Shown here piece after piece: positions 15,671-21,399 of a stretch of DNA of 39,523 nt. The notes under the pieces are model-generated. The model did no database searches and was not told where the DNA came from. It saw only the letters and a program-made list of their open reading frames with translations. A program made the translations under genes and the position numbers. The DNA is taken from positions 1 to 39,523 of the forward strand of contig JABIGM010000022.1 in the NCBI GenBank assembly GCA_018650165.1, read 5' to 3'. Positions within the stretch are counted from its first letter, which is position 1. Every line of letters begins with the position of its first letter. This DNA comes from Methanobacteriota archaeon (GTDB lineage Archaea; Thermoplasmatota; Poseidoniia; Poseidoniales; Poseidoniaceae).

Positions 15671-15753
15671 GCCGAGATCGCATAGCCTGGTATTGCGCGC
15701 GACTGGAAATCGCGTGTCCTTGTGGCACGAGAGTTCAAATCTCTCTCTCGGCG
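15671..15753 (+). tRNA. tRNA-Ser(GGA), long variable arm, CCA not fully encoded
   Basis: GCCGAGA/TCTCGGC acceptor, CGCGA-CTGGAAA-TCGCG anticodon arm, variable arm, GAGAG-TTCAAAT-CTCTC T arm, G73. Confidence 0.96.
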
Positions 15754-15846
15754 CCTAATTACACTGATATTTTGAGTCATTACAGAAAAAGAAAGGCTCC
15801 GCATCATTTGCGATTAATTGATAGTTCCAGAGCCTAAGCCCTGAGC

Positions 15847-16959
15847 ATGTCCGACCCTGTGATGAGCCCAGATGGTAAATTTATGTGGACTGGTTCTGAA
15901 TGGGTCCCTGCGCCTCCTTCCTCTGAAGGAAATAATGTCTCAATGCAGGACTCCGTAATTGGAGGCGACGTGGTTAGTAATACCATCATCAATAATGATC
16001 CTGCTGCAGTAACTGCTGCTGTTGTCACAGCATTACAACAACTCGGTATGATTGGACAGAATACACATCATCAGGCTCCACCAACCCCGGAAGTCGAGTT
16101 ACCACTTTCATTCAATGTTGGGGACCATGTAGAGTACCACAGCCCAACCAACGAAAGATGGCTTGATAGGTGTAAAATTGTTGCAGTAAATGATGATGGA
16201 ACCTATCGTATTGAAGTCCCAAAAAGCACAGTTATTGAGACCAAGCCAGCGGTAGTAATTGGCACATCTCCTGGAACAATTCGCCCAGCTAGTATCCCCT
16301 ACAAGTCAGGAGACAGAGTCTTCGCCAACTGGAATAATCACGGACATTATTATCCAGGAATAATAGCCGGAGAGAATAACGACCACACCTTCCTGATTCA
16401 CTTTGATGACGGTGATGTTGAGGACAATGTTGAATGGGGGCGTCTCGAAATACTAATTGAAGATTCGAAAGAAGTTCAGGACTATATCACCCAAGATTCG
16501 CTAGCCGAGCGAGAACTGATTGAAGCATTCCAAATTTTCGATACAAACAGTACAGGAACCATTCTAGCAAAAGAATATTTCAGAATCTTAACCGAAATTG
16601 GCGATAATCCAATACCGGCAGATGAAGTAATGCAAGAATTTGAAGAACTTGGAATCGAACTCGATTCAGAAATTGATTACCGTGCTCTAGCCAAATATAT
16701 GGCAAGCGGTGAAGGTATACCGGCAGTCGAGAAACAAAAACCAGAAGTCGTAATTCGTGATGCAAGAATGTCAGATGGAGACCTCAAAGGATACGCATAC
16801 GCCCATCCAAAATTGGGAGAAGGCCCAGTAAGGTCGTCTAGAGTTGCTGGAATTACATATGATGAACGAGCAACTGCAAGGGTCGAAACACGAAACACAA
16901 TTTATGTGGTCGGACCAACAGGATGGGCTGTTAGGCCAGATGACCATCCCTTCAATTAA
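15847..16959 (+). CDS. Multidomain protein: Trp-containing N-terminal motif, two Tudor/Agenet-like domains, calmodulin-like EF-hand pair, small C-terminal domain
   Basis: SPDGKFMWTGSEWVP; VGDHVEYHSPTNERW; GDRVFANWNNHGHYYPGII...FLIHFDDGD; LIEAFQIFDTNSTGTILAKE. Domain calls are by eye. Confidence 0.75.
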   Translation: MSDPVMSPDGKFMWTGSEWVPAPPSSEGNNVSMQDSVIGGDVVSNTIINNDPAAVTAAVVTALQQLGMIGQNTHHQAPPTPEVELPLSFNVGDHVEYHSPTNERWLDRCKIVAVNDDGTYRIEVPKSTVIETKPAVVIGTSPGTIRPASIPYKSGDRVFANWNNHGHYYPGIIAGENNDHTFLIHFDDGDVEDNVEWGRLEILIEDSKEVQDYITQDSLAERELIEAFQIFDTNSTGTILAKEYFRILTEIGDNPIPADEVMQEFEELGIELDSEIDYRALAKYMASGEGIPAVEKQKPEVVIRDARMSDGDLKGYAYAHPKLGEGPVRSSRVAGITYDERATARVETRNTIYVVGPTGWAVRPDDHPFN

Positions 16960-17068
16960 TGTTATTGAGTGGCTGTCAATGAATCCTCCACCAATAGAGT
17001 TGCAAGGTAATGAAAATTAGAATTATTTTGTTGAACGAACTTGAATCTGAACCACAAATCTCTTTGGG

Positions 17069-20000
17069 GTGATGCAATTATTTCAAATCATGAAGGGCCG
17101 TGCGCTGCTGCTTGCCCTGTTGTTGCTGGGTTCATTTCCAGTGTTTCAGGCTAATGCGGGATCTACTACTCACTTCGGCAATTCCGGCTCACAGGTCTCG
17201 ATTATGCTGGATTTTAATGGCCCAGGATATGATTCCAGCACCAACATCAGTATTGGCTCTAGTTCGGTAATATCAACAGCGGCCCTCGATGTCAGGGGTC
17301 TTGCAAATTCAAGTGGTGAAAGACCTGATTCTATCGGGCTAGACATTGGAGATGATGGCGATTTAGATTGGTATTGGGGAGGCCCTGGAAATGGTACATA
17401 TGGACACCTTGACGAACTTTCAAATGGATATAAACGGGCCGGACTAAACATGTCTACAGGCAATAATTCAAGTTATTACATCCGTTTGCCAATCAACGCC
17501 ACAATTACCTCTGCTTCTATGCAGTTCTCGACACTTAGCGAACTAACAATCTCTGGTAGTGATGTACGTGATTCCTACTTGCATCAACCAAATCCAAGCT
17601 ATGGTAACTCTACACACGCAGATTGTAACTATGGTAATCAAAGCGTCACACATGTTGGCAAAACGGAGTGGGTAAATTGGCATGTTTATCGAGGAGTATA
17701 CTGGTTCGACTTAGGCCTATTGCCTGGAGCGACAGTTCTAGATGCCAACCTCTCATTCTATGTGCAGGATGCGGTGAATCAAGCTTCGACCACAACTCCT
17801 GTAAGCACCCTGCATACCTACTCAGTCCATCCATTGTTGAAAAATTGGGAGGAAGGCCTTGAGAGTAATGCGCCGGTCTCACAATCTGCAGGCGTCACCT
17901 GGAATAAAGCGATAGACAACCTCACGGGTAGCGATTATTCTTGGTCGACCGCAGGTGCCTCTGGCACGACCGATCGAGATGTTGCAGTTGCAAGTGTAAC
18001 GGATAGTCCTGCCAATCTTGAGTACAACTGGCTCGACTTCACTAATCAAAACTTGACAGATTTGGTACAGAATTGGGTTAATGGTAATGTGACCAATAAT
18101 GGACTTATTCTCATTGGTGATGAAAATACCAACAAACCCGATGGCTCGAGATTGACGATCACCTCGAGAGATAACGCCACACATGGGCCGAAATTGGTTG
18201 TTGTTTTCGAGGGTAGTGATGATGTGACTGCAGCCCTAGATGTTGGCGCAGACGGAAATTGGGAATGGAATCATAGTGGAAACCTTAGCAATGCATCGAC
18301 GGTTCCTGATTTTTCAGCTTCTCTAAATTCATATCTCGGTAATGCGAGTCCTAGTTTCACCGATGCGTGGGGTAATGAATTCGTCGACATTCCACTTAAA
18401 GTGAGTGCGAATGCCACCTTGGTTCTTGATGAAATTGATATCGATTATGACTGGACTGCAGCTGTCGGTGAATCACCTCATTCAAACCTGCTTGATGAAT
18501 TGAATCAACATGTTTCTAATCTCACGCCAGATGGCGCTGGCAATGTTAGTATCATCATTAATGTCAGTTCGGGTAGCGCCGGAAAGGTAGAATTGCTCAA
18601 TCTGTGGTTAGGACAGGGTGACCGCCCACCTTCTATTACAACAATTACATTGCCCGAAGAGACCATTGTTCCCGATGGCCAATCTCGGACTTTGAGTATC
18701 GACGTGACTTCATATCAAGGGCTATCGAATTTATCGTGGCTCGCTCTGATTCCCCAAATTCAGAACAGTGCTAGCCAACCAATACTTTACCATTCACTTG
18801 AAAATGACACTACATGGGCAAATGACCCTGGTGGACTTGTTAGCAACATCAGTGGTTCGTGGATAGCATTGGACAACCAAAGCGGCACCATGGAATGGAA
18901 TATTACTGTCAGTTGGGCTTGGTTACCTGAACAAGGTGTTGTTTGGGAGGTTCATGCGCAGACCATTGATTCACTCCATACGAGTAGGCTTTCAAGCCAG
19001 ACCACAGATCATGAACGCCTAATGGAGATTACGAGTTTTACAGTCTGGGATCTGACAGACCCCACAGAGGGAAGCACGCATATCGATGCTGGAGAATGGA
19101 TCGCAGGTGGTGATTTATTACGCATAGGGGGTGCCGTACGTTTCCTCAATCAAACCAGTTACCCACTTCCAGGCGAGGTTCTCATTGAACTAGTGGATCT
19201 CGGTGCGAATACAACTGTCGATTCCAATGGTTTTTACTCAATTGAAGTGTTTGCTCCACAGACCAATTATTACGGTGGATACACCATCGCAGCTAATCTC
19301 TTTGGCCCATATGATTCAACTGAACCGGGGCTTGCATCACTTACTTTCAATATAGACGCTACAAAGCCGGGTTTCCAAGCAAATGCACCTCTGGGTGAAA
19401 GAATCCTGCCCTCGTCCCAGCAATTGTTTAATGTGACTATTACAGACGGTGCTGATAGTGATGGACTTGACCTTGGTAGTCTACGTTTGAAGTGGTGGGT
19501 CGAGGCTCTACACGATAATGGCGATGGAATTCCTCAACTAGAGGAATATGGCCAAAAACCGCTTCTCAGAGTAGGAGAGAGCGATATATTTCACGCTCGA
19601 TATGATGATGCATTCAATTCACACGGCCAGCAAGTATCTTTGTTCATTGAGGGCTTTGACAGGACCGGTAATGCAATCTTAAGTGGCCCAGGATTTGAAG
19701 AAGATTTGTTACATTACACATCGTTAGTTCCTTCTCCAACTGAATTCATATCTGCCAATATAGACTTCCCCGGCGGCAACACTCTGACCCCGACTCACCC
19801 CGGTTGGCTAAATATCAGTATTCGAGATGTAAACGGCCTAGATGATATCGAAGGAATCATCATCGACCTTGGCTTAGGCAACACACTGTCCTATGACAAT
19901 AACGGGTCATTCGAGTCTAGTAATCCACTGCTTGAGGTCTCAGAATATATGTTTGAGACCCAAGGGGATGAAATATATCTTAACCTTTCAATTACCGCTT

Positions 20001-21313
20001 CGCCACTATTTGATGATATGTCAGTAAATGAAATGGGACTTACGCTCAAAATAAGCGATTCATCGGGCGAGCATATTACTGACACTGGACTGAACTGGCG
20101 CTTTAATGCCGATGTCATACTAGTCGAATCTTCAATGAGGACCTACGGTAATGATTCGCGTCTACTTGAGTATGATGATTATGTCACACTTGGACAGAGA
20201 ATAGTGATAGAGGGCAGGGTGCGTTATGTTGCTGCAGATCTAGCGCCGGCTTCCGATTCATATTCGGTTATGCTCGAAGCACCTCTTGACCTTCCTCTTT
20301 TGGTGGAGACTGGTTCCGATGGTCGGTTTGAAGGAACGATGGATGCCCTTGGAAGTGGATTGTACCGTGTGGTCATCCAAACCAATGGTGGCATAGGAAT
20401 TGCGAATCCAAGTCCCGTGCCGGTTCGTCTGCAAATTGATGATACGGCCCCTTCGATAGTGGGTCACGAACCTACGATAATTTCCACTAATTCGACTGAA
20501 ATTCTGTTACAATTTGACATTCAAGAAGCAGATTCGGGCCTGCCTGAGCAGGGGATTCAGGTTCAATGCATCCAGGTTGACGGCCTTCTCTCCTTTGGAG
20601 ACATTATAGTGGGCACAGCTGTCATAACCATCCCTGGCGAAGTCAGCCGGTATCTTGTGAACCTAAGTTCACCGCCCATACAAAGTGAGAACCTTGATTG
20701 CTGGTTCAATGTTGCTGATCTAGCTGGAAATAATTTAACAGGCGAAGGTTCGGCCAAGACTTGGCCACTTCGTCTCAAAGTAATCGAGACTAGACCTGAC
20801 ATCAGTGCTGATATGATTACTTTGTCAGATGATTCGCCAGTCCTTGGCCAAAAGACCACCGTTAGTATTGATATCATTAACATGGGCGCCCCCGATGCCA
20901 TGACATTCAACATTACTTTGGAGACCCATATTCTTCATGAAGGTAGAATAATTATCCAAGAAGTTCAAACAGTCCAAGTATCGACTCTGAACGATGAGAA
21001 AATGTCAGTGACATTCGAATGGGTTCCTGACTGGGAAGGTGAACTGGACCTAGCAGTGCGAATCGATTCAGGCCAGGATATTGACGAGTCCAACGAAAAC
21101 AATACCGTATTGTTGAATGTGAAAGTTGGGCCTGTTCCTGAACCGGAGGGATTCTTTGCCTCTCAAACGATGATGGTGCTTTTCGGGATTGGATTGGTCG
21201 GCGCAGGATTACTATTCCTTGCGTCACGGCGAATCAGCCAAGGTGATAATTCAGAGTGGCTCGATGATGGTGATGATGAATATGAGGAAGAATATGAAGA
21301 AGTGGATAATTAA
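17069..21313 (+). CDS. Giant surface protein with DNRLRE-like domain, Ig-like/CARDB region, C-terminal TM helix and acidic tail
   Basis: Signal peptide MKGRALLLALLLLGSF (ATG 17090 is a plausible start); DSYLHQ...NYGN...RGVYWFDL...VLDANLSFY; IDSGQDIDESNENN; TM MMVLFGIGLVGAGLLFLA. Confidence 0.75.
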   Translation: MMQLFQIMKGRALLLALLLLGSFPVFQANAGSTTHFGNSGSQVSIMLDFNGPGYDSSTNISIGSSSVISTAALDVRGLANSSGERPDSIGLDIGDDGDLDWYWGGPGNGTYGHLDELSNGYKRAGLNMSTGNNSSYYIRLPINATITSASMQFSTLSELTISGSDVRDSYLHQPNPSYGNSTHADCNYGNQSVTHVGKTEWVNWHVYRGVYWFDLGLLPGATVLDANLSFYVQDAVNQASTTTPVSTLHTYSVHPLLKNWEEGLESNAPVSQSAGVTWNKAIDNLTGSDYSWSTAGASGTTDRDVAVASVTDSPANLEYNWLDFTNQNLTDLVQNWVNGNVTNNGLILIGDENTNKPDGSRLTITSRDNATHGPKLVVVFEGSDDVTAALDVGADGNWEWNHSGNLSNASTVPDFSASLNSYLGNASPSFTDAWGNEFVDIPLKVSANATLVLDEIDIDYDWTAAVGESPHSNLLDELNQHVSNLTPDGAGNVSIIINVSSGSAGKVELLNLWLGQGDRPPSITTITLPEETIVPDGQSRTLSIDVTSYQGLSNLSWLALIPQIQNSASQPILYHSLENDTTWANDPGGLVSNISGSWIALDNQSGTMEWNITVSWAWLPEQGVVWEVHAQTIDSLHTSRLSSQTTDHERLMEITSFTVWDLTDPTEGSTHIDAGEWIAGGDLLRIGGAVRFLNQTSYPLPGEVLIELVDLGANTTVDSNGFYSIEVFAPQTNYYGGYTIAANLFGPYDSTEPGLASLTFNIDATKPGFQANAPLGERILPSSQQLFNVTITDGADSDGLDLGSLRLKWWVEALHDNGDGIPQLEEYGQKPLLRVGESDIFHARYDDAFNSHGQQVSLFIEGFDRTGNAILSGPGFEEDLLHYTSLVPSPTEFISANIDFPGGNTLTPTHPGWLNISIRDVNGLDDIEGIIIDLGLGNTLSYDNNGSFESSNPLLEVSEYMFETQGDEIYLNLSITASPLFDDMSVNEMGLTLKISDSSGEHITDTGLNWRFNADVILVESSMRTYGNDSRLLEYDDYVTLGQRIVIEGRVRYVAADLAPASDSYSVMLEAPLDLPLLVETGSDGRFEGTMDALGSGLYRVVIQTNGGIGIANPSPVPVRLQIDDTAPSIVGHEPTIISTNSTEILLQFDIQEADSGLPEQGIQVQCIQVDGLLSFGDIIVGTAVITIPGEVSRYLVNLSSPPIQSENLDCWFNVADLAGNNLTGEGSAKTWPLRLKVIETRPDISADMITLSDDSPVLGQKTTVSIDIINMGAPDAMTFNITLETHILHEGRIIIQEVQTVQVSTLNDEKMSVTFEWVPDWEGELDLAVRIDSGQDIDESNENNTVLLNVKVGPVPEPEGFFASQTMMVLFGIGLVGAGLLFLASRRISQGDNSEWLDDGDDEYEEEYEEVDN

Positions 21314-21382
21314 TTCATAATATTACTTACTCAATTAATGCCGATAAAATTCATTTCCCAAACATTTTATCCATATCTATTC

Positions 21383-21399
21383 CACCTCCATAGGAGGTG
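21383..21399 (+). promoter_or_regulatory. Perfect 7-bp hairpin CACCTCC-ATA-GGAGGTG whose 3' arm is an SD-like sequence
   Basis: Inverted repeat read directly; contains the in-frame GTG at 21397. Confidence 0.55.

Follow-up and report, generated by a model that had tools for sequence, protein, structure and literature searches.

What does a protein that joins Tudor-like barrels to a calmodulin-like EF-hand pair do inside an archaeon? The question is raised by a gene, called here Tudor-EF, in a stretch of 39,523 nucleotides (the window: contig JABIGM010000022.1 of assembly GCA_018650165.1, positions 1 to 39,523, forward strand) from a Marine Group II (MGII) archaeon of the Poseidoniaceae. Tudor/chromo-like barrels are readers of chromatin marks in eukaryotes and secreted peptide binders in bacteria. 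Tudor-EF is an open reading frame (ORF) at 15847-16959 on the forward strand, encoding 370 amino acids (aa) with an isoelectric point (pI) of 4.5, and its start codon is backed by N-termini conserved among relatives. The initial annotation dealt with the segment 16100-16710, equivalent to residues 85-288, in which it described two Tudor-like units and an EF-hand segment. These three modules were described correctly, but the protein contains five: an N-terminal hairpin, the T1 barrel, the T2 Tudor barrel, an EF-hand pair and a C-terminal beta domain (CT), and both the hairpin and CT had been missed. A chance ORF is excluded because there are 408 homologue clusters (at 90% identity) of similar length, and the whole family is highly conserved, with about 97 invariant alignment columns. 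Neither a signal peptide nor a transmembrane (TM) helix was found in the protein (the maximum Kyte-Doolittle mean over 19 residues is 1.31 and the N-terminus is not hydrophobic), and Pfam shows no enzyme domain. Tudor-EF is a real and strongly conserved gene, and its product is an intracellular variant of the Tudor/chromo-like kind, present in an archaeal group that ranks among the most abundant of the surface ocean. As to its role, the reading we favour, tentatively and at somewhat less than even chances, is that of a cytoplasmic, enzyme-free, MGII-specific adaptor, in which T2 would grip a cationic group, the EF-hand lobe would bind a helix and the whole protein would work with a coiled-coil partner.

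The T2 barrel (16294..16461, forward strand; residues 150-205) is a true Tudor domain. The Pfam model Tudor_3 (PF18115) matches residues 156-193 with an E-value of 6.7e-10 and 39.1 bits, above its cut-off of 25.8, and sequence matches of T2 include PHF20L1 (E 3.9e-4), 53BP1 (E 0.03) and the Tudor domain of KDM4B; the tandem model 53-BP1_Tudor (PF09038) reaches 17.3 bits on the protein, below its cut-off of 22. In the AlphaFold model, a check proposed in the initial annotation, T2 superposes on the Tudor domains of TDRD3, PHF1, PHF20 and SMN with Z 9-10 and root-mean-square deviations (rmsd) of 1.2-2.5 Å; for TDRD3 the values are Z 10.0 and 1.3 Å over 53 of 55 residues. All 50 top rows of the structural search with T2 are Tudor-type domains. 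The cage-type residues pointed out earlier in this second barrel were borne out by the alignment of 126 relatives: W162 and D188 are present in all 126, position 169 is Tyr in 115 and Phe in 11, position 186 is Phe in 122 and Tyr in four, and D190 is also invariant. W162, Y169, F186, D188 and D190 presumably correspond to W1495, Y1502, F1519, D1521 and Y1523 of the 53BP1 cage, in what we take to be the numbering of that protein, and four of these five positions, including an Asp, would then be kept in T2. The pocket signature W...YYPG...YDDGD recurs in bacterial and eukaryotic kin of T2 with only 30-40% identity, which favours a conserved binding pocket over a purely structural barrel. This persistence points to a genuine pocket in T2 that binds cationic side chains, in which three aromatic and two acidic residues would grip a positive group on another protein, such as a methylated or a plain Lys or Arg.

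The T1 barrel (16108..16293, forward strand; residues 88-149) is a five-stranded SH3/Tudor-like barrel specific to MGII, in whose sequence the cage residues are absent; outside MGII, its hidden Markov model (HMM) gives weak matches only, of at most 22 bits. In the Foldseek search with the whole model, tandem-Tudor and Agenet structures, SETDB1 and SGF29 among them, align over about 130 columns that span both barrels, and the ZGPAT tandem matches residues 90-203 with Z 8.6, but with an rmsd of 9.8 Å over 104 residues. T1 would be the cage-less half of a tandem and would support T2. The absence of a cage from T1 also suits a different account, in which both barrels are generic SH3-fold binders of proteins or nucleic acids, their aromatic residues are structural and the protein itself serves as a building element, perhaps in a lattice close to the membrane. 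PWWP and Tudor folds also bind DNA or RNA, and the top structural matches include a PHF1-DNA and a PWWP-ssDNA complex; moreover, with so many columns invariant across the family, the conservation of the cage is not specific to it. This account is unlikely in our judgement, since the signature of Trp, Tyr, Phe or Tyr, and two Asp survives in the distant bacterial and eukaryotic kin, as expected of a functional pocket, and the acidic nature of the protein disfavours binding to nucleic acids.

The adaptor reading gives the EF-hand pair (16468..16710, forward strand; residues 208-288) the role of a helix-binding module. The calmodulin-like lobe proposed in the initial annotation is confirmed by a phmmer match to calmodulin in the PDB (E 3e-12, residues 216-287, about 70 aligned residues) and by the helix-loop-helix pairs of the structural model, and it stays below the Pfam cut-offs for EF-hand_7 (PF13499, 23.7 against 30) and EF-hand_6 (20.5 against 25). 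Loop 1, DTNSTGTILAKE (16540..16575, forward strand; residues 232-243), had been called near-canonical; the D1, N3, G6, I8 and E12 on which this rested are present, together with T5, but the Leu at position 9, unique to the window protein among the 126 relatives, makes the loop fail the PROSITE pattern PS00018. Loop 2, GIELDSEIDYRA (16651..16686, forward strand; residues 269-280), is non-canonical and degenerate, as had been said; its first residue is Gly, as it is in 120 of the 126 relatives. At position 12 of loop 1, 69 relatives show Lys and 50 show Glu: most copies of family f1 have Glu-12, and the three f2 and f3 copies examined have Lys or no loop that could be parsed. The lobe is equally conserved in the Lys-12 and Glu-12 forms, so that calcium sensing is not a conserved role of the family, and the same pattern fits a calcium-independent binding role. 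By analogy with light chains that lost calcium binding, the lobe most likely binds a helix independently of calcium, and it would be at most calcium-tuned in the Glu-12 branch, which includes the window protein. Like the lobes of calmodulin and of calcium-insensitive light chains, it has two EF-hands; unlike them, it is single and embedded in a multidomain protein, and it departs from calmodulin in the degenerate loop 2, in the loss of Glu-12 from loop 1 of most relatives and, here, in Leu-9.

The Ca sensor of the initial annotation did not hold up, since Lys-12 is found in 69 relatives and the window loop itself fails the pattern. The model built on it, a methyl-Lys or methyl-Arg reader in which Ca2+ bound at loop 1 gates what the Tudor cage reads, is unlikely. 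It draws on the canonical positions kept in loop 1 and on the conserved cage, on the 26 of 121 relatives that pass PS00018, and on the at least seven EF-hand ORFs that a general Pfam model finds in the genome, which may make calcium handling a matter of some weight in the lineage. The degeneration of loop 2 tells against it, and neither a SET methyltransferase nor a histone was found in the 80%-complete genome. In this genome, the family EF profile finds the Tudor-EF gene only; it scores 44.7 bits on a calmodulin-type repeat and at most 10.6 bits on the other EF-hand ORFs. These further ORFs, at least six in a genome of 1.75 Mb (contigs C57, C39, C45, C50, C38 and C42 of G000, five of them above the Pfam cut-off), include none close to the Tudor-EF lobe.

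For the third part of the adaptor reading, the partner, the evidence comes from gene fusion and gene adjacency. Nine clusters contain longer forms of 747-869 aa; a close look at one of them, P0325 (859 aa), showed an N-terminal extension of about 425 aa ahead of a whole Tudor-EF protein. A homologue of this extension is encoded by an adjacent, divergent gene in four genomes from both main MGII families (G156, G142, G061 and G129) and is fused in G196. In the genome of the window, the homologue of the fused part (E 4e-22) is P0330 (L084:1144-2343, reverse strand; contig C12 of G000), a protein of 400 aa that contains a coiled coil and ends in a zinc ribbon. P0330-like genes occur in 47 of the 50 genomes with Tudor-EF and in 108 of 201 overall, figures that do not make an independent test as the genomes are related, and in the same genera that lack Tudor-EF no such gene was found. 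Tudor-EF probably works with this conserved coiled-coil protein of about 420 aa, fused or adjacent in other lineages, and the N-terminal hairpin and CT would add further contacts. Apart from the partner, no conserved neighbour was found, and the genes around Tudor-EF are housekeeping genes with no relation to it. An initial set of 12 loci showed no flotillin beside Tudor-EF, and the neighbours there are photolyase-related, MMPL, OYE, TauE, SHMT and PdxT genes. An ORF of 546 aa overlapping the Tudor-EF gene of G138 was considered as a partner and discarded, being unrelated to the fused N-terminal part. A complex prediction of Tudor-EF with a P0330-type partner gave a score of 0.31 against a mark of 0.32, which counts neither for nor against binding. 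In the ESM Atlas, the partner shows a language-model similarity of 0.94-0.96 to clusters in which Band_7 is carried by 17-88% of the members, and no Pfam or PDB-profile match. A bolder version of the adaptor, to which we give a rather low probability, would be an intracellular reader system of MGII at the membrane, outside chromatin, made of a Tudor cage for a methylated or otherwise cationic mark on proteins of the cytoplasm or near the membrane, a calmodulin-like lobe and a flotillin-like scaffold. Should a modified side chain indeed be what the cage reads, Tudor-EF, being small, soluble and expressible, would open the reading of post-translational marks in a non-Asgard archaeon to direct tests, and the recurrent coiled-coil fusion is a concrete lead to the function of Tudor-EF.

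With eukaryotic readers (53BP1/Crb2, PHF20/PHF20L1, PHF1, TDRD3 and SMN), T2 shares the fold, and it scores above the Tudor_3 cut-off; it differs from them in that the cage sits in the second barrel of the tandem rather than in the first. Several points weigh against the adaptor reading. The fifth cage position, in the same assumed numbering, is Asp in place of the Tyr of 53BP1. This genome, which is 80% complete, yielded neither a SET nor a histone-fold gene, and binding of a histone tail is therefore unlikely. We know of no ligand, methyltransferase or methylated target of Tudor-EF. The cage itself is drawn from sequence conservation and not from three-dimensional pocket geometry, and the whole-protein AlphaFold model, built on an alignment of 64 relatives, has a mean predicted local distance difference test (pLDDT) of 68.7 and a predicted template modelling score (pTM) of 0.39, at which the packing of the domains is not reliable. 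The elements of this model are a beta hairpin at residues 12-21, a helix at 52-65, two five-stranded barrels at 94-147 and 157-202, a four-helix EF-hand pair at 208-287 and a beta domain at 300-355. On the side of the partner, P0330 lies on a different contig and shows 27% identity to the fused part over 6-284 (38% over 240-420), and its SPFH/Band-7 nature comes from the language-model similarity and was not confirmed by Pfam or PDB profiles.

Where the T2 barrel came from was addressed with an exhaustive search of 1.8 billion representatives, which gave 1818 matches. The MGII family ranks first and is followed by giant proteins, in which T2-type repeats number as many as 29; the named ones are all eukaryotic (Pythium, Lagenidium, Tribonema, Ascophyllum, Parmales, Rigifila and Incisomonas). 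The eukaryotic giant proteins P0125-P0191, mostly stramenopile, show 10-29 such repeats, several of them with EF-hands, and appear to be uncharacterised. Giants such as those of Pythium insidiosum (GLD98134.1) and Tribonema minus (KAG5192664.1) resemble Tudor-EF in their T2-type repeats, at 30-40% identity, and in some cases in having EF-hands; they differ in carrying 10-29 repeats in 1000-7600 aa, in having no T1 or CT, and in the first cage position, which is usually Tyr or Phe against Trp in T2. Per domain, the T2 HMM scores 48-58 bits on the best eukaryotic repeats and 55.8 bits on P0220, a lipoprotein-like protein with three repeats, whose secreted tandem-repeat relatives in many named bacteria score 23-52 bits; bacterial matches of the HMM include Methylobacterium, Bosea, Azospirillum, Leptospirales, Acidobacteria and others. 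In the reverse search from P0220, MGII variants come first. A bacterial chromo-like family has been described as tandem and secreted, as now and then combined with EF-hands, and as having 'rare cases in euryarchaea' (Kaur, Iyer, Subramanian & Aravind; bioRxiv 10.1101/217323; Sci Rep 2018, PMC5906684). The bacterial chromo-like proteins and T2 share the barrel subfamily and a signature of the W...YYPG...YDDGD type, and both are tandem; the bacterial ones bear a signal peptide or a lipobox and have a predicted extracellular role, whereas Tudor-EF has no such signal and adds T1, the calmodulin-like lobe and the novel CT domain. In the domain tree, the T2 units of MGII group together as a single clade, with support of 90-95, within a polytomy, which supports a single origin of T2 in MGII. 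Bacterial and eukaryotic kin are about equally near, and a eukaryotic origin is therefore not shown.

Throughout the MGII data, inheritance of the gene looks vertical. All named clusters of the family come from Poseidoniales or from 'Euryarchaeota' metagenome-assembled genomes. A search of 401 genomes of the phylum for the T1-T2-EF region placed it in no families but the two main ones of the Poseidoniales, in 21 of 58 and six of 36 genomes, apart from one marginal match among about 300 other genomes; the patchy presence across MGII suggested in the initial annotation is therefore real. Several genera show no Tudor-EF match, and many near-complete genomes are without the gene, such as a closed, single-contig genome of 2.1 Mb from a genus in which 13 of 21 genomes carry it. 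The initial annotation had considered that the architecture might already be common and annotated in prokaryotes: it is common in Poseidoniales and carries automatic names, among them 'Tudor-knot domain-containing protein' and 'Ca2+-binding EF-hand superfamily protein', but beyond that order it was not found in the phylum, and NCBIfam has no model for it as a curated family. In the literature library searched, no paper links Tudor domains to Poseidoniales; families specific to Poseidoniales that contain calcium-binding domains are mentioned by Méheust et al. (2022). T1, T2 and CT are each single-copy in this genome.

The gene order around Tudor-EF is conserved only within genera, and the gene lies at the edge of a variable slot. 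A tRNA-Ser(GGA) gene (ARAGORN; 15671..15755, forward strand), with a divergent tRNA-Thr just upstream, ends 91 nt before the ATG of Tudor-EF, and not 94 nt as first given. The slot from this tRNA gene to the next conserved gene (15756-21396) differs in three species of one genus: in the window it contains the short-form Tudor-EF gene and a gene for a surface protein of 1414 aa, after the same tRNA pair in G066 (L012) it contains a long-form Tudor-EF gene and a TauE-like gene, and in G112 (L080) it is empty, with tRNA-Ser directly adjoining the next conserved gene. The locus is thus variable, as had been proposed. A mobile-element origin was rejected, as the search for an att-like repeat of the 3' end of tRNA-Ser came up empty; no integrase was seen in the slot either, the Tudor-EF gene has no GC anomaly, and with the patterns used, viral contigs yielded no relatives of it. 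Tudor-EF is 70% identical to the G066 copy, and its syntenic neighbours are 58-89% identical; being as diverged as the flanking genes within the genus, the gene looks vertically inherited. Horizontal exchange among MGII lineages was considered, given that identities within the genus and across families (70-72%) are both about 70%, and was rejected as unnecessary because the gene tree separates families f2 and f3 from most f1 sequences, the flanks are equally diverged, and a large invariant fraction (gamma shape 0.53) explains the saturation. The eukaryote-like and possibly acquired locus of the initial annotation is not upheld, since the barrel subfamily is also found in bacteria and the tree singles out no donor. 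A recent acquisition from a eukaryote, such as a stramenopile alga or protist, into a tRNA-linked island is improbable: many of the best matches outside MGII being eukaryotic poly-Tudor proteins, some with EF-hands, the lobe being nearer to calmodulin than the other EF-hands of the genome, and the slot after tRNA-Ser being variable would suit it, but per-domain scores are about as high for the secreted repeats of bacteria, MGII T2 is a single clade in a polytomy, the gene is in both main MGII families and separated between them in the gene tree, its divergence matches that of its flanks, and neither att repeat, viral relatives nor GC anomaly was found.

The two terminal modules complete the protein. 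The N-terminal hairpin motif, SPDGKFMWTGSEWVPAPP (15865..15918, forward strand; residues 7-24), forms two short strands in the AlphaFold model, and its residues W14, W19, P21, P23 and P24 are invariant across relatives. It may correspond to a zinc ribbon that lacks the cysteines, because the ribbon at the C-terminus of P0330 occupies the spot of the SPDG...W...W.P hairpin in the fused forms and a true zinc ribbon stands in place of the hairpin in variant P0128, in which T2 is also duplicated. The hairpin is followed by an MQDSVIGGD... and helix module (15943..16047, forward strand; residues 33-67, with the helix at 52-65 in the model), which is common to other MGII proteins, and the family HMM matches ORFs on contigs C37 and C12 of the same genome. 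P0320 (695 aa; L029:253-2340, contig C37 of G000), also from this genome, begins with this SPDG...W...W.P hairpin as well and has two copies of the MQDS..GD repeat; next come a helical part with weak likeness to TPR, a stretch rich in Pro and, at the C-terminus, a hydrophobic tail anchor. Since P0320 shares the N-terminal module, this module is a reusable head in MGII.

CT (16735..16956, forward strand; residues 297-370) is a family-specific beta domain of seven strands, which reaches a pLDDT of 89.6 when modelled alone with AlphaFold2. It shows no recognisable fold: Foldseek against the PDB gives nothing at an E-value of 1e-3 or better, and the DNMT1 RFTS domain, the best VIA match, was not accepted at Z 5.1. 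In the ESM Atlas, CT matches eight rows of its own family (TM scores of 0.94-0.96) and two unannotated hypothetical proteins (about 0.8), and the Atlas feature search gives only weak viral hypotheticals (0.86). The window protein is a short form: together with a sizeable subgroup it stops just after HPFN, whereas most relatives, of about 430 aa, have an added terminal Tudor-knot/chromo-barrel. The spacer of 109 nt on the 3' side of the gene is too short for a remnant of that barrel, and the rest of the genome yielded no Tudor-knot.

Other variants of the family repeat or insert modules. T1 is repeated four times in P0142 (392 aa), and others duplicate CT or insert about 100 aa. P0142 and an ORF at G001:C2:12217-12987 show four tandem T1, a coiled coil and a DS.IGGD...NNDP..A helix module that is C-terminal rather than N-terminal. 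P0009 and P0118 (alignment A1, columns 445-560) contain an insert of about 100 aa, rich in Gly, Trp and Tyr and with no assigned family, between CT and the terminal Tudor-knot. Just downstream of the Tudor-EF gene of G004, a degraded second copy of CT with stop codons is located at L017:10460-10693.

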